A stretch of DNA of 64,000 nucleotides from a virus (IMGVR_UViG_3300049919_000267:38379-102378), one strand, 5' to 3'. Positions 34,937-59,831 are shown, counted from the first letter of the stretch. Notes: a model not told the origin generated them from the sequence alone. Made by a program: numbers and translations.

Positions 34937-37060
34937 TTATAAAAATAATTTAGATACTTTTCTTTTATATTTTGGTTTTGCTGTCATCATAAAAATAGAT
35001 TTTTCTTTTTTATGGCCGTTATTTGATTTTAACTTACCATAATAAGCTGCAATCCTATTATCCCCATCAAGGGAATTAATTTTAATAACTGGATTAAGTT
35101 TATTTGCTAAAGCAATAGCAAGTTCAGCAGCAATAACCCTATCAAAATTCTTTTCTTTATCAAACTTAATTATCTCTTCAAGTAACATTGGATCTAAAAT
35201 TCTGGATACACCAAAAATCTGATTTGTTACAGAACCATTTTCATCTCTATTTTCAAATACAACCTGATCTAGATACTCTTTTAATTGCCCATCAAGAAAA
35301 TCTCTAATCTGTTTAGCAGATCTGTGAATACCATAATCTCTGTGTACTGTTGTATTTGGCACAATTTGTTTCAACCACTGAGGTTGTACTTCAAGGTAGT
35401 GTGCATCTCCTTTGTCAACCATATAATTAATAAAGCTCATCTCATCATTTTCACATAATGTTCTAGCATTATAATATTTAATTAGTCTTCTGGCAGTTTC
35501 ATTCCATTGTTTTATATCTGAAGGTCTAGCACTATACGAAGCTACAAACATATCCTGATATTTCTCAGATCCTATTTCGTGCATTCGTTTATAAATATAA
35601 ACAGTACCAAGAGAATCCGAATACTCAGATTCAGAGTGTCTGTAAGGATCTACTCCGGCTACATATAGTCCAAAAGGGGGGTCAGACATTGGAAATTCAT
35701 AAATGATAACTGGAGCATCTTTATCTTGAGTCTTAACTGGAAACTCTGTTATTGGCAATTTCTCAGAAAACTCATGGACAACCATGCCATTATCAGACAA
35801 AGTAAGATTAACTGGAGTGCCACTGAGGTCATTCTCCCTGATATTTCTTTGTTGTCTTTTAGCTTCTTCAACATTAAAATCATTTTTAGTAAGTACTATA
35901 AAACTATCAGATGGCTTTTTACACCAATAAGCTTTAAACTTTAATAAAGTCTTTGAATTACCAGATTTTTTAGCTTCATTATATTTAGGAGTCCACCATT
36001 CATTATCATATCTGTCTATGTCAGATATTTGAATTTTAATATGAGATAAATCAACTTCAGATTTAGGAATATCTAAATATTCATTTAAATCTTTTTCTAT
36101 CATAAAAGACATATTACCAATACCTGCTGGTACAAATCTTCCAATCTTACTCCCACCTTCCCAGGTATTTTCAAACTCTAACAGGTTATAAGAAGAAGGA
36201 TGATAAAACATTTCTGCTGCTTCAGCACCAACTTCCATATCACCTCCTGTACCAGTTATGAATACTAGACAAGAAGGTTTAGCTGTATTACCGGCCCACC
36301 AACAACCATCACTATCTTTATAACATCCAATTAAATTATTTAAAGTTCCTATCTCATCTATCAAATGAAATCCAGGCCTTGTACCATTACAAGCCATAGA
36401 ATTATTTCCATCTTCAAAGTTTCTTACTAGAATCTGAGAGTTAGAAGACTTTGGATGAGGAGCATTAGAAGATTTATCTTTCCAACCAGCTTTTACTTCA
36501 GCTTTCCAGTTAGATGTTAGTCTGTTTTTTACAAATACAGGATGTAGATTACTTAAACCATCTTCAATCTTATCTGTAACAAGTTTAATATAGTTATTAG
36601 CACCTGCTGAAATAACACTTTGAGAATTATTAAAGAAAGTATATAACCACCCAGCTCTTGAAGCTGCTATAATAGATTTACCAAAACCTCTGGCCCCAAC
36701 TAAACTATAAAATTTACCCTGGATCTCACATTGAGTTAAATCATCTGCTATCATCCAATCAATATCTCTTAAAGTAGGAGTGCCTATAACCCTGATACCT
36801 GATCTTTCTTGTGGGGTTCCTTTATTAATAGTTATATATCTAGCTATTTTCCAATAGACTGTATGAAAATATAACCACCCTGAAACAAAAATTTTTTTCT
36901 TTTTATCCAGATAGAAACCATTCATACACCTATCTTTCTCTGCTTTCCAATACATATTAAAAGAAAACATTTGATTAGGATCAGTTGGATCATAAACAGG
37001 TTCTACTTGTTTTGGAAACCAGATATTCTTTGTATCTTGTTTAAACTGAACCATCTTCAA
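34937..37060 (-). CDS. terL: Terminase large subunit
   Basis: Walker A-like …VGARGFGKS…, Walker B …GFHLIDEIG…, and a C-terminal nuclease Asp motif …VAGVDPYRHSES…. The 707-aa size is appropriate. Overlaps the upstream small ORF. Confidence 0.85.
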   Translation of the reverse strand: MKMVQFKQDTKNIWFPKQVEPVYDPTDPNQMFSFNMYWKAEKDRCMNGFYLDKKKKIFVSGWLYFHTVYWKIARYITINKGTPQERSGIRVIGTPTLRDIDWMIADDLTQCEIQGKFYSLVGARGFGKSIIAASRAGWLYTFFNNSQSVISAGANNYIKLVTDKIEDGLSNLHPVFVKNRLTSNWKAEVKAGWKDKSSNAPHPKSSNSQILVRNFEDGNNSMACNGTRPGFHLIDEIGTLNNLIGCYKDSDGCWWAGNTAKPSCLVFITGTGGDMEVGAEAAEMFYHPSSYNLLEFENTWEGGSKIGRFVPAGIGNMSFMIEKDLNEYLDIPKSEVDLSHIKIQISDIDRYDNEWWTPKYNEAKKSGNSKTLLKFKAYWCKKPSDSFIVLTKNDFNVEEAKRQQRNIRENDLSGTPVNLTLSDNGMVVHEFSEKLPITEFPVKTQDKDAPVIIYEFPMSDPPFGLYVAGVDPYRHSESEYSDSLGTVYIYKRMHEIGSEKYQDMFVASYSARPSDIKQWNETARRLIKYYNARTLCENDEMSFINYMVDKGDAHYLEVQPQWLKQIVPNTTVHRDYGIHRSAKQIRDFLDGQLKEYLDQVVFENRDENGSVTNQIFGVSRILDPMLLEEIIKFDKEKNFDRVIAAELAIALANKLNPVIKINSLDGDNRIAAYYGKLKSNNGHKKEKSIFMMTAKPKYKRKVSKLFL

Positions 37061-37361
37061 GTGGGCTTAAAGTTTCAATTCCTCTACCTTTCATTTTCTT
37101 TTCTTCTTCCATAGATCTCATATTATCAACCTCTTTTAAAAGAGCCAGATACATCTTCATAGTTTCTTGAAGAAACTTACCTTGTTGTTCAATAGAAGAA
37201 ATTACATAAGGAATTAATCCACCTTTTGCTGTTGTCTTTTGTCCAACTCTATCTTGTAGGGAGATTAAAGGATGAGCATCTACATATTCTTTCCACTCCC
37301 CTAATTGCTTTTCTGCCCATTCTAGTTCTGCCCCTATAAATAGTTTCTTTGCTACTGCCAT
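37041..37361 (-). CDS. Small hypothetical protein (106 aa), upstream of and overlapping terL
   Basis: ORF track. 20-nt overlap with terL. The position is compatible with a small terminase/accessory subunit, but there is no motif support. Confidence 0.45.
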   Translation of the reverse strand: MAVAKKLFIGAELEWAEKQLGEWKEYVDAHPLISLQDRVGQKTTAKGGLIPYVISSIEQQGKFLQETMKMYLALLKEVDNMRSMEEEKKMKGRGIETLSPLEDGSV

Positions 37362-37387
37362 ATGTATTTAGTTTTTTTAAGTTCTAC

Positions 37388-37714
37388 TTAGAACTCTTCT
37401 TCATAGTCTTCATCAATACTCTCTCCATCTAAAGCTGGATCATAATCTGTTTCTGAAAATAAAACTTCAGTCTCAGCAATTACTTTTTCCATCTCTTGTG
37501 TACTAAGAGTATTTATTTCAAGTTCATTTTGATGTTTTTTAAAAGCATGGTATAGTTCTCTATCTGATAAAGAGAAACTACTACCATCAGTAGCTAATAT
37601 ATAATGCTTACTTACTTCAACATCAGGATGATCTTTTTTTAATTCCTTAAGGACTTTTATCACCCTATCAAAATAATCAATTTGATTTCTCATCACTTTA
37701 TTTTTATTCAACAA
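37388..37714 (-). CDS. Small acidic hypothetical protein (108 aa)
   Basis: ORF track. Overlaps the SPFH gene by 11 nt. Confidence 0.5.
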   Translation of the reverse strand: MLNKNKVMRNQIDYFDRVIKVLKELKKDHPDVEVSKHYILATDGSSFSLSDRELYHAFKKHQNELEINTLSTQEMEKVIAETEVLFSETDYDPALDGESIDEDYEEEF

Positions 37715-38234
37715 TTGGTTTATTATTTATTGTCAGTATTCTGAAGCTTTTCATTTTAGAAAGATCTGAAAGTGTAACAGCTTCTACCTCTATTCCCCAT
37801 TTTCTTGCTTCTACTCTGACTTTTTTAGTTATCTCATTATCAAGAGTCTCTTCTCTGCATTCTTGCCAGGTTTTTTTAGAAATTACATTCTTGATGATAC
37901 CCATTGATACATCTGATATAGCATCAACAGCATCATATACTTCTGTAAAGAATTTTGAAAGATCTGAAGTCTTATACTTGATAACTCCTTTTACAACTAT
38001 TTCCTTATCATCTACTGTTGTTAAGGACTGTGCTTCCAAAGTCATAGCTGTTGTCAATACATGATAACAATCTATTTCATCTATAATTGGAATTTTAAAG
38101 TATATTCCAGGATCAAGAATCTTTTTTAATTTTCCATATCTCATTAAACCACCTTGTTGGTACTGTTTAATAATCACATAGAATGTGATCTTATCCCATA
38201 TACTAATTATTAAATCAAGTAGTTTATCAAACAT
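37704..38234 (-). CDS. SPFH/band-7 (stomatin/HflK-like) domain protein; start trimmed
   Basis: …GIYFKIPIIDEI…VVKGVIKYKTSD…RKWGIEVEAVTLSDL… matches SPFH-domain hallmarks (compare HflK …WGIKVERVEIKDV…). The ORF-track start at 38267 is a TTG that runs through tRNA-Cys. The first ATG is at 38232-38234 (MFDKLL…). Confidence 0.65.
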   Translation of the reverse strand: MFDKLLDLIISIWDKITFYVIIKQYQQGGLMRYGKLKKILDPGIYFKIPIIDEIDCYHVLTTAMTLEAQSLTTVDDKEIVVKGVIKYKTSDLSKFFTEVYDAVDAISDVSMGIIKNVISKKTWQECREETLDNEITKKVRVEARKWGIEVEAVTLSDLSKMKSFRILTINNKPIVE

Positions 38235-38248
38235 GTTTTTAATTTTTG

Positions 38249-38320
38249 AGGCTAGGGTTGGGATCAAACCAACGCATCAGGCTTTTGCAGAGCCTTGCCT
38301 TTTCACTTGGCTACCCAGCC
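38249..38320 (-). tRNA. tRNA-Cys (GCA)
   Basis: Cloverleaf read on the minus strand: GGCTGGG / CCTAGCC acceptor stem, anticodon loop CUGCAAA, T-arm GTTGG-TTTGATC-CCAAC, discriminator U. Confidence 0.7.
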
Positions 38321-38323
38321 TTA

Positions 38324-38399
38324 TGGTGGTGAAAGTTGGATTTGAACCAACGACCAACAGATTTTCAGTCTGTCACTCTACCAACTGAGTTATCTCACC
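38324..38399 (-). tRNA. tRNA-Phe (GAA), CCA encoded
   Basis: GGTGAGA / TTTCACC acceptor stem, D-arm ACTC…GAGT, anticodon stem ACAGA/TCTGT with loop CUGAAAA, T-loop TTCAAAT, terminal ACCA. Confidence 0.75.
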
Positions 38400-38404
38400 A
38401 ATTG

Positions 38405-38479
38405 CAGTCACTATGGGATTTGAACCCATGATCTCCTCTTAGACAGAGAGGCAGGGACTCCAGACTCCCCTAAGCGACC
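38405..38479 (-). tRNA. tRNA-Asp-like (GUC) with a non-canonical U at position 37
   Basis: GGTCGCT / AGTGACT acceptor stem (2 G·U pairs), anticodon stem CCTCT/AGAGG with loop CUGUCUA, T-arm ATGGG-TTCAAAT-CCCAT. A pyrimidine at position 37 is unusual, so this may be a variant or pseudo-tRNA. Confidence 0.5.
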
Positions 38480-38525
38480 TTATGTATTTTTGTCCAGTTT
38501 ATTACACTAAAAACTGGACATTTTG

Positions 38526-38599
38526 GGTGAACTATGAGAATCGAACTCATCTCTCATGATCCACAATCATGCACTCTAACCAACTAAGCTAAATCCACC
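38526..38599 (-). tRNA. tRNA-His (GUG) with an encoded G-1
   Basis: 8-bp acceptor stem including G-1:C73, anticodon stem CATGA/TCATG with loop UUGUGGA, T-arm ATGAG-TTCGATT-CTCAT. Confidence 0.7.
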
Positions 38600-38601
38600 A
38601 G

Positions 38602-38674
38602 AGACACAGGAAGGACTCGAACCTTCGACCTAGAAGTTAACAGCTTCTTGCTCTACCATCTGAGCTACTCTGTC
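38602..38674 (-). tRNA. tRNA-Asn (GUU)
   Basis: D-arm GCTC…GAGC, anticodon stem AGAAG/CTTCT with loop CUGUUAA, T-arm GAAGG-TTCGAGT-CCTTC. The acceptor stem has one G·G mismatch at 5:68. Confidence 0.65.
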
Positions 38675-38991
38675 TTATTTACATCTATTATCATAGATCC
38701 TTTTTGAGATAAATAATCTATAAAACCATCTGGATCTACAAATGTAAAGTTAATAAAATTTGTAATATGCTCTAAAGTATTCTCTTGAGTACTTGGGTAA
38801 ACATTTAAATTATATGTCTTCTCACCTACTTTATGCCAAACTTGACAACCATGTATTTTTGCTGAACTTTGCATTCTTTGTGTTTCAAATGGATTCCAAG
38901 TTCCTGCAATAAATCCAAAATCTTCACTAAACTTTCTACCTGTCCTTTGTTCTAAGAAAGCAATATAATCTTTTTCACTTAACTCTTTCAT
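38665..38991 (-). CDS. Hypothetical protein (109 aa); start trimmed
   Basis: The ORF-track ORF 38665..39162 translates through the Gln-like tRNA (…VVGSNPHSS… corresponds to GGTTCGAATCC) and starts inside tRNA-Trp. The first credible ATG after the tRNA is at 38989-38991 (MKELSEKDY…). Confidence 0.5.
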   Translation of the reverse strand: MKELSEKDYIAFLEQRTGRKFSEDFGFIAGTWNPFETQRMQSSAKIHGCQVWHKVGEKTYNLNVYPSTQENTLEHITNFINFTFVDPDGFIDYLSQKGSMIIDVNKTE

Positions 38992-39008
38992 AGATAAATA
39001 TTTATTTG

Positions 39009-39080
39009 TAGAGGAATGAGGATTCGAACCTACAACTAAGAGATTCAAATTCTCTTGTGCTACCGTTACACTATTCCACT
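39009..39080 (-). tRNA. tRNA-Gln-like (UUG), degenerate and possibly a pseudo-tRNA
   Basis: D-arm GTGT…GCAC, anticodon stem AGAGA/TCTCT with loop AUUUGAA, T-loop GGTTCGAATCC. The T-stem has 2 mismatches (GTAGG/CCTCA) and the acceptor stem has one (T·T). Confidence 0.4.
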
Positions 39081-39159
39081 CTGTTTGAGACTGTTCGTAT
39101 ACATTTACCCAGATACTTACCATTAGTCTTTCAAATGTTCCTGGACACCTCTCCCATCG

Positions 39160-39232
39160 CACACAATCAAGGAGTCGAACCTCGAACCTTCAGTTTTGGA
39201 GACTGCTGCTCTACCAGTTGAGCTAATCATGC
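39160..39232 (-). tRNA. tRNA-Trp (CCA)
   Basis: D-arm GCTC…GAGC, anticodon loop CUCCAAA, T-arm CGAGG-TTCGACT-CCTTG. The acceptor stem has 3 G·U pairs and the anticodon stem one mismatch. Confidence 0.55.
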
Positions 39233-39679
39233 TTATATTTTTAAAAGTTTACAGATGTATCTGAAAGTGTTAATGTCTTTACAACTGCAAGTACATTTAA
39301 AATGTTCAGGAAGTGAATTAAAATAAAGTCCTTCTATTCTTGAAGGGTCTAATAAAATTATAGAAATAGATTTATCAGTAAAATTCCATCTTAAAAAATA
39401 GTTATTTTTGGTAAATCCCATACTTCCCCACATTAATCCTGCGTCATATCTTTTTTGAGGATCTTTTTCATATACTTCCCATCCCTCAGCTTCTATTTGT
39501 TCTTTAGTTAGATAGGGAACTCTTATAGCTTTCGATGGTATTTCCATTTCAGCTATTCTAACTCCAGCAGAATCAATTATACTGGGTTCAAAACTTCCTC
39601 CAGTCATTAACTCTTCACATTCATACCCAACTCTTATATCCTCTATTGAGGGTGTAAAGTATTTGTTTTGTTCTGACAT
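39233..39679 (-). CDS. Hypothetical protein (148 aa)
   Basis: ORF track. Nested between tRNA-Trp and tRNA-Pro. C-terminal …CTCSCKDINTFRYIC…. Confidence 0.55.
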   Translation of the reverse strand: MSEQNKYFTPSIEDIRVGYECEELMTGGSFEPSIIDSAGVRIAEMEIPSKAIRVPYLTKEQIEAEGWEVYEKDPQKRYDAGLMWGSMGFTKNNYFLRWNFTDKSISIILLDPSRIEGLYFNSLPEHFKCTCSCKDINTFRYICKLLKI

Positions 39680-39700
39680 ATTTAATTTTCTATTGGTTTG

Positions 39701-39774
39701 TATAGTAAGCAGGATTCGAACCTACGACCTCTTGCTCCCAAAGCAAGCATTCTACCGGACTGAACTATTACTAT
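39701..39774 (-). tRNA. tRNA-Pro (UGG)
   Basis: Perfect ATAGTAA / TTACTAT acceptor stem, anticodon stem CTTGC/GCAAG with loop UUUGGGA, T-arm GTAGG-TTCGAAT-CCTGC. Confidence 0.7.
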
Positions 39775-39926
39775 ATAAGCCATCAATTTTTAACTCTGTT
39801 CTTGACAGAACCAGGTACTTTCCACCTGGAGGAATTCTTTCTTGATGTAACCTTATTATGTAACAGGGAACGGTGCAACACTTTCATGGCTTCCTTCATA
39901 CGTCTTTATACGTTCTGCTACACTAG

Positions 39927-39998
39927 TTCCGGGGAAAGGGATCGAACCTCTGACCTAAAGCTTATGAGGCTTTCGAGCTACCGCTGCTCTACCCCGGA
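39927..39998 (-). tRNA. tRNA-Met (CAU), elongator-type (or tRNA-Ile2 if lysidinylated)
   Basis: Perfect TCCGGGG / CCCCGGA acceptor stem, D-arm GAGC…GCTC, anticodon stem AAAGC/GCTTT with loop CUCAUAA, T-arm AGAGG-TTCGATC-CCTTT. It lacks the three G-C anticodon-stem pairs of initiator tRNAs. Confidence 0.7.
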
Positions 39999-40201
39999 AT
40001 TTTATCTTCTTTCAAAGAAACTTTTTTAATTTTTCCATTTTCATCTTTATATGAAAAGAAAGTAAAAGCTTCATAAGGAACTTGCTTTACCCCTATAAAG
40101 ATACCTAATTCTTTTAAATCATTCTCAACTTTTTTTAAATGACTAACAAACTTTTTTTGATCTGTAAAAACAAGTTCATCAGTATTTGGCTGTTTTTTCA
40201 T
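39989..40201 (-). CDS. Small hypothetical protein (70 aa)
   Basis: ORF track. Its stop overlaps the tRNA-Met 5' end by 10 nt. Confidence 0.45.
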   Translation of the reverse strand: MKKQPNTDELVFTDQKKFVSHLKKVENDLKELGIFIGVKQVPYEAFTFFSYKDENGKIKKVSLKEDKIPG

Positions 40202-40541
40202 ATTGATAAATTGCTGCTGACATTAATTCAATAAACTGTTCTAAGTCTATTTTAGAATTAGTTTGAATAATACTTTCATATCCTGTAAAGTTAAGAATAA
40301 AATGTAACATTTCATGAAGATAAGTTAATTTTAATTCTTCTGTTGAAACCTCTCTATCATTTAGTCTTGTACTAAGAGCTATATGATTTACACCATACCG
40401 AGCCTCTCCAAAAATCTTTAACAAATTCAATCTATCCGAATCATCAATTGTATACAATGTCCTTCCAAAGATCTCTACTTTTTTAGGGATTGAATTAAAA
40501 TCTTTTTTAGTCTGAGCCATAGAAACTTTTAAAAATGTCAT
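40179..40541 (-). CDS. HExxH motif protein, ImmA/IrrE-like putative metallopeptidase (120 aa)
   Basis: …TYLHEMLHFILN… (HEMLH Zn-binding motif in a short helical protein). Confidence 0.5.
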   Translation of the reverse strand: MTFLKVSMAQTKKDFNSIPKKVEIFGRTLYTIDDSDRLNLLKIFGEARYGVNHIALSTRLNDREVSTEELKLTYLHEMLHFILNFTGYESIIQTNSKIDLEQFIELMSAAIYQYEKTAKY

Positions 40542-40761
40542 TATTATCTGTGTCTATTTTTGGGTTTTCAATAGTAATTGGAGTTTCCTCCTTATGACTA
40601 TGAACCCTACCCGATAAAGGTACTGGATGAAGAACTAATTTATTCATAGATGGTACATCATTATCAGGAATCATCTCTAAATCAATTATCTCTGCCCCAG
40701 TACTTCGTACTCTTTGAAGAACACTTATAAATTCTTCAATATTAACATTGTTTGCAATCAT
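40507..40761 (-). CDS. Small hypothetical protein (84 aa)
   Basis: ORF track. Operon-style overlap with its neighbours. Confidence 0.45.
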   Translation of the reverse strand: MIANNVNIEEFISVLQRVRSTGAEIIDLEMIPDNDVPSMNKLVLHPVPLSGRVHSHKEETPITIENPKIDTDNNDIFKSFYGSD

Positions 40762-40772
40762 TTATAAATCAT

Positions 40773-41090
40773 TTAGAAGTCATCTATCGCAATAGCAATC
40801 TGAGCTGCCTCTTTGTTATCTGCTACCGCTTTCCATTTATCAATTGGACAATCTGTATGTAAACTCCTAACCTTCGCATGAAGATTACAGGCGCACATAG
40901 AACAATGCTCATCTGGTCTTAACTTATTATAATAAGCCCCAGGATCAAATCCTTCTTTGTCGTGATTAGAAGAATTTTTAGGACAAACTTTGCATAACGC
41001 ATGTCTTTCATTAGCAATTTTTTCTACCTCTTGTTTAACAAACATAGAGTTAGTAATACCTTCAAGAATATGCTTCACATTAATTTTCAT
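40773..41090 (-). CDS. Cys-rich zinc-finger-like protein (105 aa)
   Basis: …CKVCPKN…HCSMCACNLH…C… (multiple CxxC pairs). Confidence 0.5.
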   Translation of the reverse strand: MKINVKHILEGITNSMFVKQEVEKIANERHALCKVCPKNSSNHDKEGFDPGAYYNKLRPDEHCSMCACNLHAKVRSLHTDCPIDKWKAVADNKEAAQIAIAIDDF

Positions 41091-42442: not shown

Positions 42443-43014
42443 ATCTTAATTTTTAAAGTGGATTTAGCTAATAAAAGATTTTTGAACTTAATAGTAATCT
42501 CTCTAAGAAATAAGGAATTAATAGACACATCCAATTTCCCCTTAGTCTCATACCCATTAGAAGTAACTCTCCTTATCCACTCCTGACCATTCTCTTGGTA
42601 TATGGTGTAACCTACTCCCAAAAGAAAATCAACCTTTTCATTAGTATCAAACAAAGTATTCAAGATCTCCTCAAAAGGAGATTCCTTTTTAAGACTATTA
42701 AAAAGATTATCCATCATTTCTTTAGTAGTAGGACTATTATTATTATTAGGAAGATTAATAGGAAGATTACTAGGAAGATTAATAATTCCCCCAGTCTGGC
42801 CAGAGTGAATATAAGGAGGATATGCATTATTACCTGAGTGCATCTGCTCCCATAATCCTTGACTTAATGAAGGATTCAATTGGCCCGGATTTCCATTTGT
42901 AATTACTACATTTGACATACCTGAATTCGTCAAACTATTTTGTGAGGATAATTTAATTTCCCCCAGACTCATAGTTTTATCGTCATACTTATCTATATAC
43001 CCTTGAATATCCAT
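42439..43014 (-). CDS. Hypothetical protein (191 aa), first gene of the leftward arm
   Basis: ORF track. 4-nt overlap with the downstream gene. Asn-rich. Confidence 0.5.
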   Translation of the reverse strand: MDIQGYIDKYDDKTMSLGEIKLSSQNSLTNSGMSNVVITNGNPGQLNPSLSQGLWEQMHSGNNAYPPYIHSGQTGGIINLPSNLPINLPNNNNSPTTKEMMDNLFNSLKKESPFEEILNTLFDTNEKVDFLLGVGYTIYQENGQEWIRRVTSNGYETKGKLDVSINSLFLREITIKFKNLLLAKSTLKIKI

Positions 43015-43152
43015 TAGTTGCGAAATTTTTGGTTTTAAAAATTAAAAATTAAAACATAAAGATACTAAAATTTTTAAACTAAAAAAAATTTTTCCAAAAT
43101 TTTAAAAAGTGCATGAGAAATAAGGGGACATCATATACAACACCCTGGGCTG

Positions 43153-43185
43153 TTGCGTAGCAACATGGGTAGTCGGGTATCTTTG
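43153..43185 (+). promoter_or_regulatory. Candidate Bacteroidota-type sigma-A promoter (TTG…TAnnTTTG) for the rightward arm
   Basis: TATCTTTG at 43178-43185 fits the -7 consensus TAnnTTTG. TTG at 43153-43155 lies about 22 nt upstream (-33-like). It sits about 65 nt upstream of the 43252 start, adjacent to a GTTGC-GTA-GCAAC hairpin. Confidence 0.35.
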
Positions 43186-43251
43186 TTTCTGGGTAACTTA
43201 TTCAAAACGAAAGAAACAAAAATATAAACAAATTAAAAACAATTAAAAGTT

Positions 43252-43611
43252 ATGGCAAAAGTAGCAACACAACCACAAACAAAGGTTATTGAAACAGTAA
43301 AAGTATCAAAAAGTACAAAAGCCACAATTGAAAAGGCAATAGGTCGCCAATTGGGTAGCCCTATTAATAACAAAGGCGAGGGCGAAGAATTTGAAGTAAC
43401 CTTAACAGGGGATATTCAAATAAGAGAATTTCAACAAGTGAAAGGGGCTTATCTTACAACTAAGGAAGGATACAGCATCAAAGTTAATGCAAGTTTTGAT
43501 CCTTTGAAACATAAAGAAAACGCAGTATTAACAGCGAAATGTGTAGTTCTTCCGAAGAATGAAGAATTAGGAATCACACGGGATGTAAAATATTGTGTTT
43601 TTGTTGATTAA
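43252..43611 (+). CDS. Hypothetical protein (119 aa), first gene of the rightward arm
   Basis: ORF track. Followed by a strong terminator. Confidence 0.6.
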   Translation: MAKVATQPQTKVIETVKVSKSTKATIEKAIGRQLGSPINNKGEGEEFEVTLTGDIQIREFQQVKGAYLTTKEGYSIKVNASFDPLKHKENAVLTAKCVVLPKNEELGITRDVKYCVFVD

Positions 43612-51344: not shown

Positions 51345-51416
51345 GGCCTGTTGGTAAAGTGGTTAATACGTTAGGTTTTCGACCTAAAATCATGAGTTCG
51401 AATCTCATACAGGCTA
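51345..51416 (+). tRNA. tRNA-Arg (UCG)
   Basis: GGCCTGT / ACAGGCT acceptor stem (G1·U72), anticodon stem TTAGG/CCTAA with loop UUUUCGA, T-arm ATGAG-TTCGAAT-CTCAT. Confidence 0.65.
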
Positions 51417-51433
51417 CTAATAAAATTAAAAAA

Positions 51434-51661
51434 ATGGAAATCAATAATGAAATTGTAGAAAAATATCTTAAAGATCCAAATAATTGTCCATTTTGTGAAA
51501 ACAAGAAAGGGGAAGGATTAAGAGCAGAAAATGATGATATTATCCCAGATAATTCAGCATTATGGAGAAATGTTTCTTGTAAAGATTGTGGCAGAGAATG
51601 GGTAGAAGAATTTGAGTTAACAACTATTAGTAATCTTACAGAATCTAAATTAATATTATGA
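51434..51661 (+). CDS. Small zinc-ribbon protein (75 aa); start trimmed out of tRNA-Arg
   Basis: ATG at 51434 (MEINNEIVEKYLKDPNNCPFCENKKGEG…CKDCGREW…), two CxxC pairs. The ORF-track start 51359 lies inside the tRNA. Confidence 0.5.
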   Translation: MEINNEIVEKYLKDPNNCPFCENKKGEGLRAENDDIIPDNSALWRNVSCKDCGREWVEEFELTTISNLTESKLIL

Positions 51662-51960
51662 CACATTTATTAATACCTATAAAGGATATTGAAGCTGAAA
51701 TAAAGCATAACAGAGAGTATCTGAATAGTTTACAAAGAAATAAGAGAAGTAATGATTCAGATAAACTTGAGCAAAAAACAGAATTTCTGGAAGATTTACT
51801 TACTGGTAAACAAATATCTCTTAATGAAAAAGATATAACTAGAATAAGCTTAAAAATATATCCTGAAAAAGAAGAAATAGATTACGATACAGGGATTATA
51901 TTTGATGGAAATAGAGATTATAGAATAGGTTATAAACAAGCATTAAAAGATTTATTATGA
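51658..51960 (+). CDS. Hypothetical protein (100 aa)
   Basis: ORF track. ATGA overlap with its neighbours. Confidence 0.5.
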   Translation: MTHLLIPIKDIEAEIKHNREYLNSLQRNKRSNDSDKLEQKTEFLEDLLTGKQISLNEKDITRISLKIYPEKEEIDYDTGIIFDGNRDYRIGYKQALKDLL

Positions 51961-52346
51961 AACAAACAATTTATATACCTACTAAAGTAGAAGATGAATT
52001 ACCTGAAGAAGATACATTTTATCTATGTAAAATAGGATTTAATGTTATTAAACAAATAGAGTTGTTTAAAGGAATTTTTATTAATGAAGAAGGTAATGAA
52101 AATATAGATGATGATACTGATATAAAAGATATTACTCCTTATAAATCATCAATTACTGAATGGTTTAAACCAACAGAAGCATATGTATTCACTCCTGAAG
52201 AACTTAAACAACTATTAGAAGAATATACTAATACAATTGTTGAGAATGCTAAAGTAGAATATAAAAAAGACTTATTAACAGGAGAAGTAGATAAAGAATC
52301 AATAACATCTCAATTACCTAAATTTTTAAATGAAATAGGAATATGA
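51957..52346 (+). CDS. Acidic hypothetical protein (129 aa)
   Basis: ORF track. 4-nt overlaps on both sides. Confidence 0.5.
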   Translation: MKQTIYIPTKVEDELPEEDTFYLCKIGFNVIKQIELFKGIFINEEGNENIDDDTDIKDITPYKSSITEWFKPTEAYVFTPEELKQLLEEYTNTIVENAKVEYKKDLLTGEVDKESITSQLPKFLNEIGI

Positions 52347-52582
52347 ATAAGCCAGAAGTTAAAGTAAAAAAATACTTAGATTACTTTGAAATAAAAAATT
52401 ATATTATAGAAAAATATAATTGTGATAAAGATGAGGATAAAACTTGGAATTACATGTGTAATAACCAAGAAGTTAGAAATGATAGTTATGGTTATATTCC
52501 AACAGAAAGTTGTATAAATGAATTTACAAAAGCAGTAAAAGAAGAATTTGGTGAAAATCCTAAAGTTTGGATTTCTTGGTAA
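52343..52582 (+). CDS. Small hypothetical protein (79 aa)
   Basis: ORF track. Confidence 0.45.
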   Translation: MNKPEVKVKKYLDYFEIKNYIIEKYNCDKDEDKTWNYMCNNQEVRNDSYGYIPTESCINEFTKAVKEEFGENPKVWISW

Positions 52583-52617
52583 ATATAACTTCTAGTAATT
52601 AACTTAAAAATAAAATT

Positions 52618-52776
52618 ATGAAACCTTATTTATTTTCATATACTCATGGAATAGGTGATGAATTTCCAATTGCTTATCAATTAGTTTACTCTGATAATGC
52701 TGAAAATGCTTTAATTTTATTAAAATTGAAAATGTATAATAAAATTTATGATATTGAAAATTGTACAATTGAATAA
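52618..52776 (+). CDS. Small ORF (52 aa), not in the ORF track
   Basis: Hand-read: MKPYLFSYTHGIGDEFPIAYQLVYSDNAENALILLKLKMYNKIYDIENCTIE*. Fills the gap between 52582 and 52779. Confidence 0.35.
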   Translation: MKPYLFSYTHGIGDEFPIAYQLVYSDNAENALILLKLKMYNKIYDIENCTIE

Positions 52777-52778
52777 TT

Positions 52779-53129
52779 ATGAAAGAAATAAAATTACATA
52801 ATAATACTTACTTATTTGTAGAAGTACCTTTTGATGCTACAGACTTTTATTACGATAGTTGGTTTACAAGATATGTTAATCATTCTAAAGGTAGTATTAA
52901 GTTTGATGTAAATACTGAAATAATCTCTACAACAAAAGATATTACAGAAGAACAAGCTGAAAGTATTGTTGAAAAAATTTTAGGTTTTGGTACTAAAAAT
53001 CAATATAAAGATTATAAATTAGATGTTAACTTTTCTATTTATTTTACACCCAAAGAATCTCTACAATCACTAATTCAAGCTAATGGATTAGATATTAATA
53101 AAAACTATTTAATACTTAAAAAGATATGA
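52779..53129 (+). CDS. Hypothetical protein (116 aa)
   Basis: ORF track. Confidence 0.5.
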   Translation: MKEIKLHNNTYLFVEVPFDATDFYYDSWFTRYVNHSKGSIKFDVNTEIISTTKDITEEQAESIVEKILGFGTKNQYKDYKLDVNFSIYFTPKESLQSLIQANGLDINKNYLILKKI

Positions 53130-53500
53130 CAATAGAACAAAAAAATATAGCTATAGCTGAAATGCTTGGATGGAGAAGGGGACACAGAGATTTTCCAAAA
53201 GAAAAAAGATGGAAAAATGATTGGTTTGATATAGATGAAATCAGAAGAACAAGAGATGGCTTAGAACCTCTTTTATTTCATTCAAATGCTAATTGGCAAT
53301 TTGAAGCTATAGATTGGATAGAAAAACAAAAGGTTTACATTAGAATTGAAAAACCTATTGGAGAATTATCTTCTTGGTTTGTAAATTTTGATAGTGAACA
53401 TAGTGAAATAAAAGAAGTTCAAGTATTTAATAAAAATAGAAAAGAAGCAATCTTTGAAGCATTATATCAATTTAGTCGATACATAAAAAATAATTTATGA
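53126..53500 (+). CDS. Hypothetical protein (124 aa)
   Basis: ORF track. ATGA overlap. Confidence 0.5.
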   Translation: MTIEQKNIAIAEMLGWRRGHRDFPKEKRWKNDWFDIDEIRRTRDGLEPLLFHSNANWQFEAIDWIEKQKVYIRIEKPIGELSSWFVNFDSEHSEIKEVQVFNKNRKEAIFEALYQFSRYIKNNL

Positions 53501-53895
53501 AACATCTATTTTTACCATATGAATTAGCTTTAATAGCTAAAGAGAAAGGATTTGATGAAGATTGTATAGCAATGTACTTTAAAACTTCTAAAAAACTATC
53601 AATAGATAGTAAAAATCTTTTAAGTAATAAAATTTGTAGTGGAATAACAGCTCCTCTATATCAACAAATAATTGATTGGTTGCTTGAAAAACATCAAATT
53701 AGTATAGAGCCACAAATTAATCCTGATTTAAGATGGATAATAGACTTTGTACCTAATATATTATTAACCCACGAAGGAAGTGGAAATTTTACATTTTTTA
53801 CAGGTTCTAAAAAATTAAATAATGATTATCAAGGTTTTAATACAAAATATGAAGCACTAAACAAAGCAATTGAAGAAGCTTTTAAACTAATATAA
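53497..53895 (+). CDS. Hypothetical protein (132 aa)
   Basis: ORF track. ATGA overlap. Confidence 0.5.
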   Translation: MKHLFLPYELALIAKEKGFDEDCIAMYFKTSKKLSIDSKNLLSNKICSGITAPLYQQIIDWLLEKHQISIEPQINPDLRWIIDFVPNILLTHEGSGNFTFFTGSKKLNNDYQGFNTKYEALNKAIEEAFKLI

Positions 53896-53897
53896 TT

Positions 53898-54314
53898 ATG
53901 AAACATTTTGCTAAATATCTTCCTGTAGAAGGAGAGATAAAAGAAGGTGATACAGTTCTTTTAGCTTCTTGTGATGAAATTTATACTTATGATAAGAAGG
54001 TAGTCACTCTTGTTCCCAGAGATAAAAAAGTAAAACTATTCCTCTGTAGTAGAGATATACAGGTAGGTGATAAAATAAGTATTGAAGGAGTTACTGAGTC
54101 TACTATATATGGAGGACAAAATTTAAGTAGTTCCATAAAAGAAGGTAAAGTTTTCAAAGTAATAGGAGAAATATCACCAGAAGCTACCTGGGTGAAAGAC
54201 GGAGATAAATTTGAAAAATCCGACATAAAAGTTGTTGGATATGGAGAAAATTGGAGTAAACATCAAAATCTTTCTAATATTAAAGTCAAAGGCCCATGTG
54301 GACATTTTCATTAA
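53898..54314 (+). CDS. Hypothetical protein (138 aa)
   Basis: ORF track. Confidence 0.5.
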   Translation: MKHFAKYLPVEGEIKEGDTVLLASCDEIYTYDKKVVTLVPRDKKVKLFLCSRDIQVGDKISIEGVTESTIYGGQNLSSSIKEGKVFKVIGEISPEATWVKDGDKFEKSDIKVVGYGENWSKHQNLSNIKVKGPCGHFH

Positions 54315-54324
54315 AATAATTTAT

Positions 54325-54666
54325 ATGAGTACTTTATTCAAGATTAAACTAACTCAAAAAATTGAAGTAAAAGAATTATTTGGTAGAAGTCTTGTATATA
54401 AAGGACATGAAGTATTAGCAGTACCAAAAGGAGTAATATTAAAAGTTTTAAAATCAGTTTCTAATGAAGGTGATATTATTATGAGAACAAATAATAATCA
54501 AAATCCATTTATTACTCTTTTTGAAAAAAATCCAATTGTTAGGACAATTCCATCAGATGAGTTTGTTTATTGGGGGTCATCAATACAAGAATATATATTT
54601 GAAGTACTTCCTTTTGCTTCAGCACATGATTATATAGATACAAAAAAGTTACCCTTTTCACTATAA
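54325..54666 (+). CDS. Hypothetical protein (about 113 aa); start trimmed to the ATG after the upstream stop
   Basis: The ORF-track start 54232 overlaps the upstream gene. In-frame ATG at 54325 (MSTLFKIKLTQ…). Confidence 0.45.
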   Translation: MSTLFKIKLTQKIEVKELFGRSLVYKGHEVLAVPKGVILKVLKSVSNEGDIIMRTNNNQNPFITLFEKNPIVRTIPSDEFVYWGSSIQEYIFEVLPFASAHDYIDTKKLPFSL

Positions 54667-54675
54667 AAAGGAAGT

Positions 54676-54762
54676 TTTCTATTGGCTGAGAGGATTAAGG
54701 CAAGGGGTATTGAATCCCCTGACTTCGGAAGAAGTCCAAGAGTTCGAATCTCTTATAGAAAA
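54676..54762 (+). tRNA. tRNA-Ser (UGA), type II with a long variable arm
   Basis: TTTCTAT / ATAGAAA acceptor stem, anticodon loop AUUGAAU, variable arm GACTTC-GGAA-GAAGTC, T-arm AAGAG-TTCGAAT-CTCTT. The D-arm is short with a G·U pair. Boundaries are about ±2 nt. Confidence 0.6.
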
Positions 54763-54798
54763 CAAGTTTTGCTGCATTTTCCTTAGAAAAATCAGAGG

Positions 54799-54872
54799 AA
54801 CATATTAGCTCAGTTGGTTAGAGCATCTGATTCATAATCGGAGGGTCATCAGTTCAAATCTGATATATGTAC
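54799..54872 (+). tRNA. tRNA-Met (CAU) with an A1·A72 acceptor-end mismatch
   Basis: D-arm GCTC…GAGC, anticodon stem TCTGA/TCGGA with loop UUCAUAA, T-arm ATCAG-TTCAAAT-CTGAT. Acceptor AACATAT / ATATGTA pairs at 6 of 7 positions, with position 1:72 unpaired. Confidence 0.6.
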
Positions 54873-54905
54873 CGAATTATATTTATCCACTAACAAAAAA
54901 AGTTT

Positions 54906-55277
54906 ATGTCAAAAAAAACTCCATTAGTAACAGCCTCTAAAGCAAAAGCTGTAAAAATTTCTACTGCTAAAAAAACAGTACCAACAGTATTAAACTCAAA
55001 AAAATCCTTTGTAAATCCTAAATTTCCTGTAAAGAGAGTTTCAAGGACAACAATGCTCCGTACAATTGCAGACACAAAAGGTAAGATTTTTACTTCAGTA
55101 CATATTGGTAAAGATGGTCAACCTCATCTCATTAATGGCATCCGGTACAAAAAACAGGATCATGATATGGGATATATTCAGGTATATTCTACAAAAGCCA
55201 GAGAAATGAGATTAATTAATCCTCAGACTCTAACTGATCTGACTTTTAAAGGTGTGCATTACAAAGCCAGAAAATAA
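54906..55277 (+). CDS. Basic hypothetical protein (123 aa)
   Basis: ORF track. Lys/Arg-rich. Confidence 0.5.
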   Translation: MSKKTPLVTASKAKAVKISTAKKTVPTVLNSKKSFVNPKFPVKRVSRTTMLRTIADTKGKIFTSVHIGKDGQPHLINGIRYKKQDHDMGYIQVYSTKAREMRLINPQTLTDLTFKGVHYKARK

Positions 55278-55307
55278 TTGTTAGCCTTCATCAAAGAAAA
55301 GGCCCAG

Positions 55308-55379
55308 ATTCCTGTGGCTTAATTGGTAGAGCATCCCCCTGAAAGGGGAAGGTTGTAGGTTCGAGTCCTACCAGGCATC
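55308..55379 (+). tRNA. tRNA-Phe-like (GAA) with stem mismatches
   Basis: D-arm GCTT…GAGC, anticodon loop CUGAAAG (GAA) on a CCCC/GGGG stem with a C·A mismatch, T-arm GTAGG-TTCGAGT-CCTAC. The acceptor stem has one T·C mismatch. An alternative fold gives a 6-nt anticodon loop. Confidence 0.45.
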
Positions 55380-55414
55380 CTGAATTATTTTTAATATAAA
55401 ACTTCAAATTCAAA

Positions 55415-56062
55415 ATGGAAAAAAATGTAAATGCTCCTGTTAAAAAAGCAACAGGTAACAAAACAACAGAAATTATTATTGGTTCAGCAGCAGTTAAATT
55501 ACAAAATGCTGTAAAATCTGCTTATTCAGCACTGGAAGAAGTAAAAAACCTGGATGTAAAAGCACAGGAAGGAACTCTCAAAGTAAGTGATTTGGAAGAT
55601 AAGATTGGTGGATTAAAACAGGATCTTGAAAACAAGACAGCACAGAACAAAATTGATCTTCAACAAGCTTATGATGCTGATAAAAAAGCATTTGTTGATA
55701 ATTGGTTAAAAGAAAACAATGTAGTAGTTGTTGATGATGCTACTTACAAAAATCTGCAAAATGAACTTGCCAGCATGGAAGTTAAAATGGAAAGTACAGT
55801 TAGAACTGAAGTGGGTAAAGCTGTAGGTATAGAAAAAGCAAATTCTGCCAATGCTTTGAAAATTGCTCAATTGGAAGCTGAAAAGAAAGAAGCTTCTAAT
55901 GTAGCTGAAATCAGTCAGTTAAAAGCTCAAATCATGTTCTTGGAGAAAACTTCAAAATCATGGGAAGATGCTTTAACAGCTGAAAGAGCTGCTGGCATTG
56001 AAAGAGCTAAGGCTTCTTCTATCAACACTCTGAATGTTGGTGGAACCACACAAGGACGTTAA
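55415..56062 (+). CDS. Coiled-coil protein (215 aa)
   Basis: ORF track. Ala/Lys/Glu-rich heptad-like sequence. Followed by two strong hairpins. Confidence 0.55.
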   Translation: MEKNVNAPVKKATGNKTTEIIIGSAAVKLQNAVKSAYSALEEVKNLDVKAQEGTLKVSDLEDKIGGLKQDLENKTAQNKIDLQQAYDADKKAFVDNWLKENNVVVVDDATYKNLQNELASMEVKMESTVRTEVGKAVGIEKANSANALKIAQLEAEKKEASNVAEISQLKAQIMFLEKTSKSWEDALTAERAAGIERAKASSINTLNVGGTTQGR

Positions 56063-56172
56063 TAAAAATCGGTTAGACTTTCTCTTCCAAGAAAAGTCAA
56101 GAAGCCTTCATCTCCCCAGAAGAAAGTGATTTCTTCTGGGGAAGGTGGAGGACATCTTATTAATAAAAAGTA

Positions 56173-56209
56173 AAAACCCCTAAGAATTAATTTACTTAGG
56201 GGTTTTTCT
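56173..56209 (+). terminator. Rho-independent terminator (bidirectional-looking)
   Basis: AAAAACCCCTAAG-loop-CTTAGGGGTTTTT. Preceded at 56114..56141 by a perfect 12-bp hairpin CCCCAGAAGAAA-GTGA-TTTCTTCTGGGG. Confidence 0.65.
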
Positions 56210-56232
56210 TAAGTTTTAAATACTAATTTAAT

Positions 56233-56306
56233 GAATTGGTAGCTCAGTTGAATAGAGCATCAGCCTTCTAAGCTGAGGGTCATAGGTTTGAATCCTATCC
56301 AGTTCA
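56233..56306 (+). tRNA. tRNA-Arg (UCU)
   Basis: GAATTGG / CCAGTTC acceptor stem, D-arm GCTC…GAGC, anticodon stem TCAGC/GCTGA with loop CUUCUAA, T-arm ATAGG-TTTGAAT-CCTAT. Confidence 0.7.
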
Positions 56307-56321
56307 CAAAATAAATAAATC

Positions 56322-56924: not shown

Positions 56925-56941
56925 TACAGTCAGGAATGGAA

Positions 56942-57014
56942 GGGGATATAGCTCAGTTGGTAGAGCATTACACTGATAATGTAAAGGTCAATAGTTCAAA
57001 TCTATTTGTCCCCA
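56942..57014 (+). tRNA. tRNA-Ile (GAU)
   Basis: GGGGATA / TGTCCCC acceptor stem, D-arm GCTC…GAGC, anticodon stem TTACA/TGTAA with loop CUGAUAA, T-arm AATAG-TTCAAAT-CTATT. Confidence 0.75.
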
Positions 57015-57187
57015 CGAATAAGTTAGCTTTGCGCTAAAAGGGGTAGTCTGGTTGGAATCCAGCTTGAAGTGAATCTTCTACCCTTTTTAAATTTTTGTTA
57101 GTTTTGTATTAGTAAAATTTACAGGTAAGGAGATATAAGTAATTGTGTCTATGAACTATTTGTAAATTTTATTTTAAATTTATTAAT

Positions 57188-57406: not shown

Positions 57407-57420
57407 TTCAATTTAATTTT

Positions 57421-57738: not shown

Positions 57739-57752
57739 TAAAAAAAATCATT

Positions 57753-58226: not shown

Positions 58227-58238
58227 TTTAAAAATCTC

Positions 58239-58463: not shown

Positions 58464-58465
58464 TT

Positions 58466-59260: not shown

Positions 59261-59270
59261 TAAAAACAAA

Positions 59271-59414: not shown

Positions 59415-59424
59415 AAACTAAACC

Positions 59425-59811: not shown

Positions 59812-59831
59812 ATACTTTTAACTTTTAAAAT

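Follow-up and report, generated by a model that had tools for sequence, protein, structure and literature searches.

The window analysed here, the whole 64,000-nt stretch IMGVR_UViG_3300049919_000267:38379-102378 (30.7% G+C), is assigned by its terminase to an uncultured crAss-like phage and carries a cluster of nine transfer RNA (tRNA) genes on its minus strand, with small open reading frames (ORFs) nested among them and with an unusual tRNA-Asp. ARAGORN located the nine tRNAs at 38248-39998 and the Rfam family RF00005 matched the same nine (47.6-75.4 bits, E 4e-7 to 1e-14, model positions 1-71), with 9/9 clearing the gathering score of 29 bits. Because ARAGORN and Rfam agree and the scores are far above the threshold, a chance origin of the calls was ruled out, and the array within 1.75 kb that an earlier note had read from the sequence alone was confirmed, all of its cloverleafs being accepted by both predictors. 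In the order of transcription the genes are Met(CAU), Pro(UGG), Trp(CCA), Gln(UUG), Asn(GUU), His(GUG), Asp(GUC), Phe(GAA) and Cys(GCA), with spacers of 2-4 nt in the Asn-His and Asp-Phe-Cys runs. As the note had also said, the array sits between a block of small genes and an SPFH/terminase block; the SPFH protein is a Pfam Band_7 match and the terminase resembles crAss-like TerL (Table 1).

Table 1. Features of the tRNA cluster, its surroundings and the second group of RNA genes (positions counted from the first letter of the window; bits are Rfam scores)
Feature	Position	Strand	Remarks
ORF_C (70 aa)	39989-40201	-	just upstream of cluster; no Pfam/PHROG match
tRNA-Met(CAU)	39926-39998	-	first gene of cluster; ARAGORN; 65.2 bits; ortholog in L328
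Met-Pro spacer (150 nt)	39775-39925	-	no ORF; moderately structured; same place as tRNA-Gly in L328
tRNA-Pro(UGG)	39700-39774	-	ARAGORN; 68.1 bits; orthologs in L327, L328
ORF_A (148 aa)	39233-39679	-	between tRNA-Pro and tRNA-Trp; in ORF list and public gene call at the same size
tRNA-Trp(CCA)	39159-39232	-	ARAGORN; 58.0 bits; orthologs in L327 (93% identical), L333, L328, L001
tRNA-Gln(UUG)	39008-39080	-	51.3 bits; irregular T-stem
ORF_B (108 aa)	38665-38991	-	between tRNA-Gln and tRNA-Asn
tRNA-Asn(GUU)	38601-38674	-	ARAGORN; 65.9 bits; orthologs in L327, L333, L328
tRNA-His(GUG)	38525-38598 (38599 with encoded G-1)	-	ARAGORN; 60.1 bits
Hairpin	38491-38520	-	in 45-nt spacer between tRNA-His and tRNA-Asp
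tRNA-Asp(GUC)	38404-38479	-	47.6 bits; arm CCUCU-CUGUCUA-AGAGG
tRNA-Phe(GAA)	38324-38399	-	75.4 bits; encoded 3' CCA
tRNA-Cys(GCA)	38248-38320	-	last of cluster; 53.7 bits
SPFH/Band_7 protein	37704-38234	-	directly downstream of tRNA-Cys; Pfam Band_7 1.3e-21; 176 aa in public gene call
tRNA-Glu(UUC)	51345-51417	+	second cluster
tRNA-like, type II	54676-54763	+	loop UAUUGAAU, 8 nt, or 6 nt with U.U closing pair; looks like Ser(UGA)
tRNA-Met(CAU)	54799-54873	+	second cluster; by simple identity closer to elongator Met or Ile2 than to initiator
tRNA-like (73 nt)	55308-55380	+	6-nt loop CUGAAA; resembles Phe(GAA) minus one base; 56.0 bits
tRNA-Arg(UCU)	56233-56307	+	second cluster
tRNA-Ile(GAU)	56942-57015	+	second cluster
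Transfer-messenger RNA (tmRNA)	59832-60232	+	ARAGORN and Rfam RF00023; 57.8 bits (gathering score 47)
Leu-like type II tRNA	60308-60391	+	encoded CCA; loop CUUCGAUG, or 6-bp stem with UUCGAU; 41.4 bits

A 7-nt anticodon loop, U33 and a purine at position 37 occur together in eight of the nine tRNAs; the exception is tRNA-Asp, which has the 7-nt loop and U33 and carries U37, as the earlier note had noticed. This U37 is a deviation inside an otherwise complete tRNA and gives no ground for excluding the gene from the tRNA class. The CCA end is encoded in tRNA-Phe and in no other of the nine. The encoded G-1 that had been proposed for tRNA-His is present, as a G at 38599 one base ahead of G1 and opposite the discriminator C73, so that just two bases separate this gene from the discriminator of tRNA-Asn, whose acceptor stem has a G5.G68 mismatch. 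The tRNA-Met of the cluster has U1-A72 and A11:U24 pairs and is identical at 49/73 positions to the annotated tRNA-fMet of T5, at 36/73 to the T5 elongator Met and at 38/73 to T5 Ile2; by sequence it looks like an initiator tRNA.

A terminase-based search of IMG/VR and metagenomes gave four close relatives, here designated L327 (TerL 86% identical; Pro-Trp-Gln-Asn-His-Asp-Phe-Thr-Cys), L333 (86%; Trp-Gln-Asn-His-Asp-Phe-Thr-Cys), L328 (79%; Met-Gly-Pro-Trp-Gln-Asn-His-Asp-Thr-Phe-Tyr-Cys) and L001 (78%; a reduced set of Trp-Cys only). In L327, L328 and L333 (3/4) the cluster lies in the same place, upstream of TerL, and in the same order, and no tRNAs were found at this position in relatives whose TerL is about 60% identical or less. 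Identity between orthologous tRNAs is 57-93%, and the genes are packed differently, twelve tRNAs filling 1.3 kb in L328 and small ORFs occupying the spacers in the window lineage. When 442 stem pairs were compared between the window and the orthologs of the four relatives, 261 were identical, 125 carried double changes that still paired, 31 carried one-sided changes that still paired and 25 included a non-pair; these comparisons share ancestry, and the counts are cells and not independent events. Because the differences in the stems are mostly compensatory, we regard the tRNAs of the cluster as functional genes. By these comparative criteria the cluster as a whole is functional and belongs to a familiar type, the T5-style tRNA cluster with nested small ORFs. 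A small clade of phages from freshwater and bioreactors would have inherited it from a common ancestor, individual lineages gaining or losing tRNA members and nested ORFs.

The likeness to T5, and to the cluster of T4, lies in the many tRNAs of one orientation only a few bases apart, in stem mismatches in some members and in an initiator-like tRNA-Met; small ORFs of unknown kind and short non-coding stretches between the tRNAs are found in the T5 region as well, the annotation of which lists 25 tRNA features among small coding sequences, HNH endonucleases and 'stable RNAs'. Unlike T5, the window has a crAss-like TerL with 26-34% identity to that of any cultured phage, has no homing endonuclease nested in the cluster (Pfam, PHROG) and carries its cluster directly upstream of the terminase block, whereas the T5 tRNAs lie among early-region genes. 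A further difference is that the tRNA-Asp of T5 has the canonical CUGUCAC loop. The cluster thus adds a comparatively documented case of a phage-borne tRNA set, in an environmental crAss-like lineage.

In the tRNA-Asp of the window the anticodon loop is CUGUCUA, with U37 and A38, while canonical tRNA-Asp has A37-C38. The gene keeps G73, G2-C71, G10.U25 and the GUC anticodon, which are identity elements of aspartyl-tRNA synthetase (AspRS) in E. coli and yeast, and no other tRNA body of the cluster is as well conserved (91-92% identity to L333 and L328). Since the identity elements are kept and no other tRNA-Asp is present in the array, we take it to be the decoding tRNA-Asp of the phage. Two features that might have marked the gene as abnormal were rejected: the 'extra nucleotide' that ARAGORN placed between the D and anticodon stems is gone in the Infernal alignment, which gives a normal D-arm with G10.U25, and a reading as amber suppressor (anticodon CUA in a shifted 7-nt loop) leaves the shifted stem with a mismatch at every other position, where the standard register gives five Watson-Crick pairs.

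An exact scan of IMG/VR with the 17-nt anticodon arm CCTCTCTGTCTAAGAGG gave 72 contigs, and 71/72 matches fell within tRNA-Asp(GUC) genes. These arm-matched viral genes comprise 40 distinct sequences with widely different acceptor, D and T arms. As a control, the corresponding 17-mer of the window tRNA-Gln gave 30 IMG/VR matches, 0 of them in a tRNA-Gln gene and all attributable to chance. The invariant anticodon stem seen among the arm matches was an artefact of the exact 17-mer search: a loop-anchored scan (CTGTCTA, a gap of 12-14 nt, then GGTTCRANTCC) found at least 105 U37 tRNA-Asp genes with at least 74 different stems, and the recurrent feature is therefore the loop YUGUC-U37-A38. Among the matches listed, the G+C content of the U37 loci spans 28 to 64%, and their contigs reach 416 kb. 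In total the loop CUGUC-U37-A38 was present in at least 141 distinct viral tRNA-Asp genes, about 14% of the viral tRNA-Asp sampled, with two cultured phages among the carriers. A loop scan neutral to type returned, among the matches listed, 61 CUGUCAC, 7 CUGUCAA, 11 CUGUCUA and 2 CUGUCUC (81 matches in 80 rows), with the U37-A38 form in 8/46 tRNA-Asp from arrays of at least 5 tRNAs, and an independent sample drawn through a common D-arm sequence had it in 1/13. The other tRNAs of the arrays that carry a U37 tRNA-Asp have purine 37 in 1075/1077 cases.

Cultured phages were found on both sides. T5, EFDG1, Myrna, GMA2, Magritte, Quantum, Ceto, cr111_1 and RSP15 have the canonical loop, while the Ralstonia jumbo phage RsoM2USA has a tRNA-Asp with exactly the arm of the window and the Microcystis phage Mwe-JY26 has the arm GGACU-CUGUCUA-AGUCC. 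The crAss-like phage cr111_1 (Crassvirales) resembles the window phage in carrying tRNA genes, with tRNA-Asp beside tRNA-Glu, and differs from it in a canonical tRNA-Asp (CCUGC-CUGUCAC-GCAGG) and in a TerL of about 27-28% identity. Scanning one genome each of 185,579 bacterial and archaeal species for the arm gave 17 matches, of which 14 were not tRNAs and 3 were tRNA-like, the latter all on contigs of metagenome-assembled genomes (MAGs) and two of them in phage-like arrays of 17-19 tRNAs; in this single arm-specific scan the arm was not found in cellular tRNA-Asp genes. We found no description of U37 in a phage tRNA-Asp in open-access papers or bioRxiv, and the only other U37 that we found recorded is in a tRNA-Met with a CTCATTA loop of phage Sf14, tabulated without comment (PMC12482277). 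Judged by this distribution, U37-A38 tRNA-Asp is a common, apparently undescribed, virus-specific variant and not a decaying gene. The suspicion in the earlier note that the gene was an 'Asp-like' oddity was therefore dropped, given its retained identity elements, its well-conserved body and the many viral genes with the same loop. Position 37 is among the most conserved purines of tRNA biology, and U37-A38 tRNA-Asp is nonetheless common in viral sequence.

When the tRNA-Asp genes of close relatives were aligned, the variant proved to be confined to the anticodon arm. The window and L333 are identical at 59/59 positions outside the arm and differ at 6/17 within it, the six differences being two stem pairs together with positions 37 and 38 (window CCUCU-CUGUCUA-AGAGG, L333 CUUCC-CUGUCAC-GGAAG, which is canonical); the probability that all six would land in the arm by chance is P=5.7e-5, and between the two phages the remaining tRNAs share only 67-89% identity. 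L328, which is more distant, combines the U37 arm of the window with a body that carries compensatory changes elsewhere, and L327 has an unrelated canonical tRNA-Asp. A second switched pair with a near-identical body was seen in the contigs L103 and L564, and a looser third case is an unusual body common to the L098 group (U37) and to L190 and Ralstonia phage RSP15 (both canonical).

We consider it likely, taking the whole explanation as one, that the window holds a functional, inherited tRNA cluster with a selected U37-A38 allele of tRNA-Asp, an allele that would be interchangeable with the canonical form in many unrelated phages. The allele would alter recognition by a host factor at the 3' side of the anticodon loop and leave the tRNA chargeable and able to decode; the factor might be an anticodon-loop nuclease, most likely a tRNA-targeting nuclease, or a modification enzyme. 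We infer such changed recognition, with a tRNA-targeting nuclease as the most likely agent. Phage tRNAs have been proposed to carry anticodon-loop changes that evade tRNA-targeting host nucleases (van den Berg et al. 2023, PMC10264068), and a variant that affects only the 3' side of the loop, occurs in viruses alone and can be exchanged for the canonical form fits this proposal. Two further papers describe experimental examples, T5 tRNA-Lys against PARIS (PMC11464382) and T5 tRNA-Tyr against the retron PtuAB (PMC11555353). The tRNA-Asp of the window is like the tRNAs of these three papers in differing from the cellular form within the anticodon arm, where it has CUGUCUA and canonical viral tRNA-Asp has CUGUCAC or CUGUCAA; moreover, its arm toggles between close relatives with the rest unchanged, and the variant is confined to viral sequence. 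Unlike them, it is known from sequence comparison, whereas T5 tRNA-Lys and tRNA-Tyr are known from experiment, and its change breaks the purine-37 rule. Arm swapping between near-identical tRNAs is the pattern expected from an arms race over tRNA-targeting defence.

Several points weigh against this explanation. The nearest-neighbour body of a U37 tRNA-Asp is also U37 in 115/139 cases, which argues that the distribution largely reflects inheritance within lineages with occasional switches and not repeated invention. We know of no nuclease that recognises tRNA-Asp by positions 37-38, and a look through the open-access and bioRxiv literature found none specific for these positions; colicin E5 does target tRNA-Asp, but it recognises positions 33-36. 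C38 is a minor AspRS identity element in E. coli, so that A38 in its place could lower the efficiency of charging. In addition, a scan for sigma-70 promoters gave 26 sites against 24.6 expected, and neither this nor a terminator scan found a convincing promoter or terminator within the cluster, both scans being uninformative for signals of the Bacteroidota type.

Further, we tentatively put forward a bolder version, which we think less probable than its opposite: U37-A38 would be an undescribed, virus-specific allele class, making up about 1/6 of the tRNA-Asp in multi-tRNA viral arrays, that makes tRNA-Asp invisible to a widespread host factor acting at the 3' side of the loop, and phages would switch alleles for this reason. 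If this were true, antiphage immunity would have in tRNA-Asp a major target that has gone unrecognised, in a field where worked examples exist for Lys, Tyr and a few others and none for Asp. The idea is directly testable, because RsoM2USA and Mwe-JY26 are cultured carriers.

It is, by contrast, very unlikely in our judgement that the U37 tRNA-Asp stands outside translation, as an aminoacyl donor for another reaction or as a decoy that soaks up a nuclease. What speaks for such a role is that purine 37 normally stabilises the codon-anticodon helix, and that a pyrimidine at 37 is a described feature of the non-proteinogenic (np) tRNA-Gly species, such as the np-tRNA-Gly(UCC) of Staphylococcus, which stay out of translation (PMC6103715). 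The staphylococcal species, however, coexist with proteinogenic isoacceptors and feed cell-wall synthesis, whereas the U37 tRNA-Asp is the only one in its array and swaps with the canonical form. This holds beyond the window: at the 72 arm-matched loci, which are partial genomes, all 74 Asp genes were U37 (74/74), and purine-37 Asp genes made up 6/111 at the loop-matched loci among the matches listed. A non-translational role is made less likely by the finding that no canonical tRNA-Asp lies beside the U37 gene in the window; the retention of G73, GUC and G10.U25 also counts against it, and the replacement of the canonical arm in close relatives, with the body identical, is in keeping with a decoding tRNA that can be interchanged, as the selected-allele explanation has it.

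The second member that the earlier note had singled out, tRNA-Gln, does have an irregular T-stem, with two mismatches according to ARAGORN and a bulged A plus a U.U mismatch according to Infernal, whereas its description as a decaying pseudo-tRNA was not established. The acceptor stem has a U3.U70 mismatch and an A1-U72 pair, and the anticodon loop has A32/A38. We regard it as possible but unlikely that this gene, and perhaps other mismatched members, are pseudogenes drifting from function. Its 3 non-pairs among 17 acceptor, anticodon and T-stem pairs are the most in the cluster; A1-U72 replaces the U1-A72 of three orthologs, and A32/A38 their Y32/C38; the bulge and mismatch of the T-stem are common to the window and L327, the latter with an acceptor mismatch of its own, while the T-stem is regular in L333 and L328; the Gln anticodon arm occurs in no other tRNA gene of IMG/VR (exact 17-mer scan); and L001 is without seven of the nine genes, so loss does happen in the clade. 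Against this, its 51.3 bits are well above the threshold and level with the regular ortholog of L328 (52.3; L327 45.6, L333 58.8), 2-5 compensatory double changes separate it from each ortholog, and the anticodon, U8, G18G19 and the conserved T-loop nucleotides are intact. Mismatched stems are, besides, common in working phage tRNAs, for example those of T4 and T5. For tRNA-Asp, decay is excluded.

What the cluster does for the phage was considered together with codon usage. Codons are strongly biased to AT, with GAT at 87% of Asp, AAT at 86% of Asn, CAA at 76% of Gln and AGA at 87% of Arg. The enrichment of cognate codons in late genes that had been suggested as a check is absent overall: in the 26 late genes transcribed leftward, codons for the nine cognate amino acids amount to 308.5 per mille, against 295.3 per mille in the 34 genes that run rightward (ratio 1.045, p=0.10). 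Tuning of the cluster to late-gene codons is therefore unsupported, which has no bearing on whether the tRNAs are genuine. We hold it doubtful, if still worth considering, that the cluster mainly compensates for codons used more by this 31% G+C phage than by its host, especially in highly expressed late genes. The extreme AT bias would suit such a role, as would the U34 tRNAs that fit A-ending codons (Gln UUG and Pro UGG, with Glu UUC and Arg UCU in a second cluster) and a modest late-gene enrichment of Asp (1.27-fold) and Pro (1.34-fold). His, however, is depleted 0.61-fold in late genes; the rare Cys, Trp and His (about 1% each) are covered while the top codons AAA, TTA and ATT have no tRNA in the cluster; and the five tRNAs for NNY boxes have G34 as in any bacterium and would thus be extra copies that bring no new decoding capacity. 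Codon compensation also leaves the U37-A38 arm and its switching unexplained.

We infer the transcription and processing of the cluster, as we do the selective agent behind the variant tRNA-Asp. The cluster is probably co-transcribed with neighbouring genes, and host RNase P and 3'-end nucleases probably excise the individual tRNAs. Since CCA is not encoded in 8/9, a host CCA-adding enzyme probably completes these, and no gene for a CCA-adding enzyme, an RNA ligase or queuosine synthesis was found among the 28 window proteins scanned. The phage would in this way carry its own supply of nine decoding species, and more in the second cluster, which would sustain translation when the host pool is depleted or attacked and would assist its AT-biased codon usage. 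A TAnnTTTG box of the Bacteroidota type occurs once in the cluster region, inside ORF_B. The divergent intergenic region at 43014-43252, between the leftward and rightward blocks, coincides with a change in the sign of the GC skew, and a Bacteroidota-type -7 box, TATTTTTG, lies in it at 43224 on the minus strand as a candidate start of the cluster transcript.

The perfect 10-bp hairpin that the earlier note had placed between the Asp and His genes, and had proposed as an RNase processing signal, is present; it fills the only long spacer of the tight Asn-His-Asp-Phe-Cys run. Its arms (38491-38500 and 38511-38520, 4/10 G-C pairs) enclose a 10-nt loop, and the fold of -12.9 kcal/mol (z = -4.8) was equalled by 0/200 shuffles. 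An intrinsic terminator was rejected: the stem is not G+C-rich and is followed on the minus strand by AAAAATACATAA, an A-rich tail in place of a U-run, and the terminator scan did not return it. In the His-Asp spacer of L333, tRNA-His is followed directly by a homologous imperfect hairpin, and this in turn by GAAAATAACATAA and a DUF4031 ORF (about 730-960); in the window the counterpart of that tail is AAAATACATAA, and hairpin and short tail run straight into tRNA-Asp with no DUF4031 ORF. The spacer of L327 has a DUF4031 ORF (L327:1046-1258, Pfam PF13223, 1.7e-11) and no hairpin, and that of L328 a different ORF and no homologous hairpin. From this comparison the window spacer looks like the L333 arrangement minus the ORF. 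It is conceivable, at somewhat less than an even chance, that the hairpin is not a dedicated RNase signal but the upstream edge of a lost DUF4031 cassette, formerly the regulatory or stabilising stem-loop of that ORF. The serial order of hairpin, tail and ORF in L333, the direct joining of hairpin and tail to tRNA-Asp in the window, and the occurrence of the ORF without a hairpin in L327 and of another ORF in L328 agree with such a relic; on the other hand, a perfect stem whose stability lies beyond that of the shuffles argues for maintenance after the loss of the cassette, and the MAFFT placement of the window spacer against that of L333 is ambiguous.

The other long spacers gave no further tRNA, as no Rfam match at E<=10 was obtained for a hidden or decayed tRNA in the 150-nt Met-Pro spacer or the 78-nt Trp-Gln spacer. 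The former (39776-39925) folds at -37.4 kcal/mol (z = -2.7, 1/200 shuffles equally good) and the latter is unstructured (z = +1.3). A remnant of the tRNA-Gly of L328 in the Met-Pro spacer was rejected, the alignment to the Met-Gly-Pro stretch of L328 being weak and unconvincing. The tRNA-Cys of the window has the T-loop UUUGAUC, with U56, and an A at the presumed position 19 of the D-loop. The same UUUGA is found in L327:1754-1826, L333:1197-1270 and L328:8914-8985, and L001 has G19/C56; in the clade, U56 in place of the normal C56 together with an A for the expected G19 resembles covariation of the 19-56 tertiary pair.

Three other observations concern tRNA-Asp and its arm. In RsoM2USA (MG752970.1, 83438-83512; L527:75-149) the clear tRNA-Asp(GUC) and an adjacent tRNA-Thr(CGU) are both without GenBank annotation. 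On an Opitutaceae MAG contig with 17 tRNAs in 5.4 kb (L175, about 3686-3770), a tRNA-Asp-like sequence missed by ARAGORN combines this U37 arm with a matching acceptor stem, G73 and CCA, and has GCGCGGGCAGCACGCG in place of the normal T-arm. The 17-mer also lies in a conserved non-tRNA element of MAG contigs from Saccharibacteria and related groups (L160, L164, L166, L169), in the order GAGAGGGCTTTCTG-CCTCTCTGTCTAAGAGG-CACGGGCTGCGACC; the element may belong to some unidentified structured RNA, and a reading as intron-split tRNA-Asp was rejected because the context is this different conserved element and not a tRNA.

No nested ORF of the cluster matches a Pfam or PHROG family. ORF_A has no Pfam or PHROG match and no tblastn match in L327, L328, L333 or L001, and is found in the window phage alone among the relatives compared; for ORF_B, a homolog occupies the corresponding spacer of L327 (31% identity, E=4.7e-9), and L333 has a similar ORF. 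The earlier note had observed that ORFs are fused across tRNAs, with 'GSNP' betraying read-through of T-loops, and indeed a 165-aa ORF (38665-39162) crosses tRNA-Gln and reads its T-loop as 'VVGSNPHSS', with the same fusion in the public gene call at 152 aa. This upstream extension of ORF_B, in the mechanical ORF and the public call alike, is wrong. Fused public calls of this kind and the unannotated tRNA-Asp of RsoM2USA hold a lesson for annotation. ORFs that enter a tRNA stop at the TAG of the conserved U8-A9-G10, ORF_B in tRNA-Asn (38665-38667) and ORF_C in tRNA-Met (39989-39991), and the DUF4031 ORF of L327 likewise stops in its tRNA-Asp (L327, about 1256-1258).

For the SPFH protein downstream of tRNA-Cys the start is likely the ATG at 38234 and not the TTG at 38267, which overlaps tRNA-Cys; the ortholog in L327 is 76% identical, and a second SPFH/Band_7 protein is encoded in the same 64 kb at 62413-63255 on the plus strand (Pfam 3.7e-17). 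In L333, L328 and L001 a protein with an HExxH motif takes the place of SPFH after tRNA-Cys. A 120-aa protein upstream of the cluster (40179-40541, minus strand) has an HEMLH motif and scored 21.1 bits for SprT-like, under the cut-off of 25.6, and the HExxH proteins after tRNA-Cys in L001, L328 and L333 are similar to it.

In the wider window the leftward genes run from about 43.0 kb through the cluster and SPFH to the large terminase (34937-37060) and on into a long block of large genes, and rightward small genes start at 43.25 kb. The phage context is given by TerL, a portal-sized gene and a structural block. In tblastn TerL was 26-28% identical to many Crassvirales TerL, with about 88-91% of the protein aligned (E as low as 6e-56), and it is 34% identical to that of Leptolyngbya phage Lbo-JY46; the crAss-like assignment rests on this TerL homology and not on the Crassvirales core gene set. 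Megablast of 37000-41000 against 50,697 phage records gave no DNA-level match, and identical sequence was found in one JGI metagenome (3300046090) and two Logan assemblies (SRR35532964, SRR35433672). Metagenomes are the only known source of the phage.

A second, looser tRNA cluster lies at 51345-60391 on the plus strand among the rightward small genes, and holds, besides four tRNAs, three tRNA-like genes with anticodon loops that are not of 7 nt and a tmRNA (Table 1). An arm scan for the Leu-like gene gave chance matches only, with a T-loop motif downstream in 1/120 among the matches listed. The predicted tag of the tmRNA is AEGNIDSLLASLSYSVESELALA, which ARAGORN labels 'not identified', and a distant relative also has a tmRNA (L021:1314-1635).

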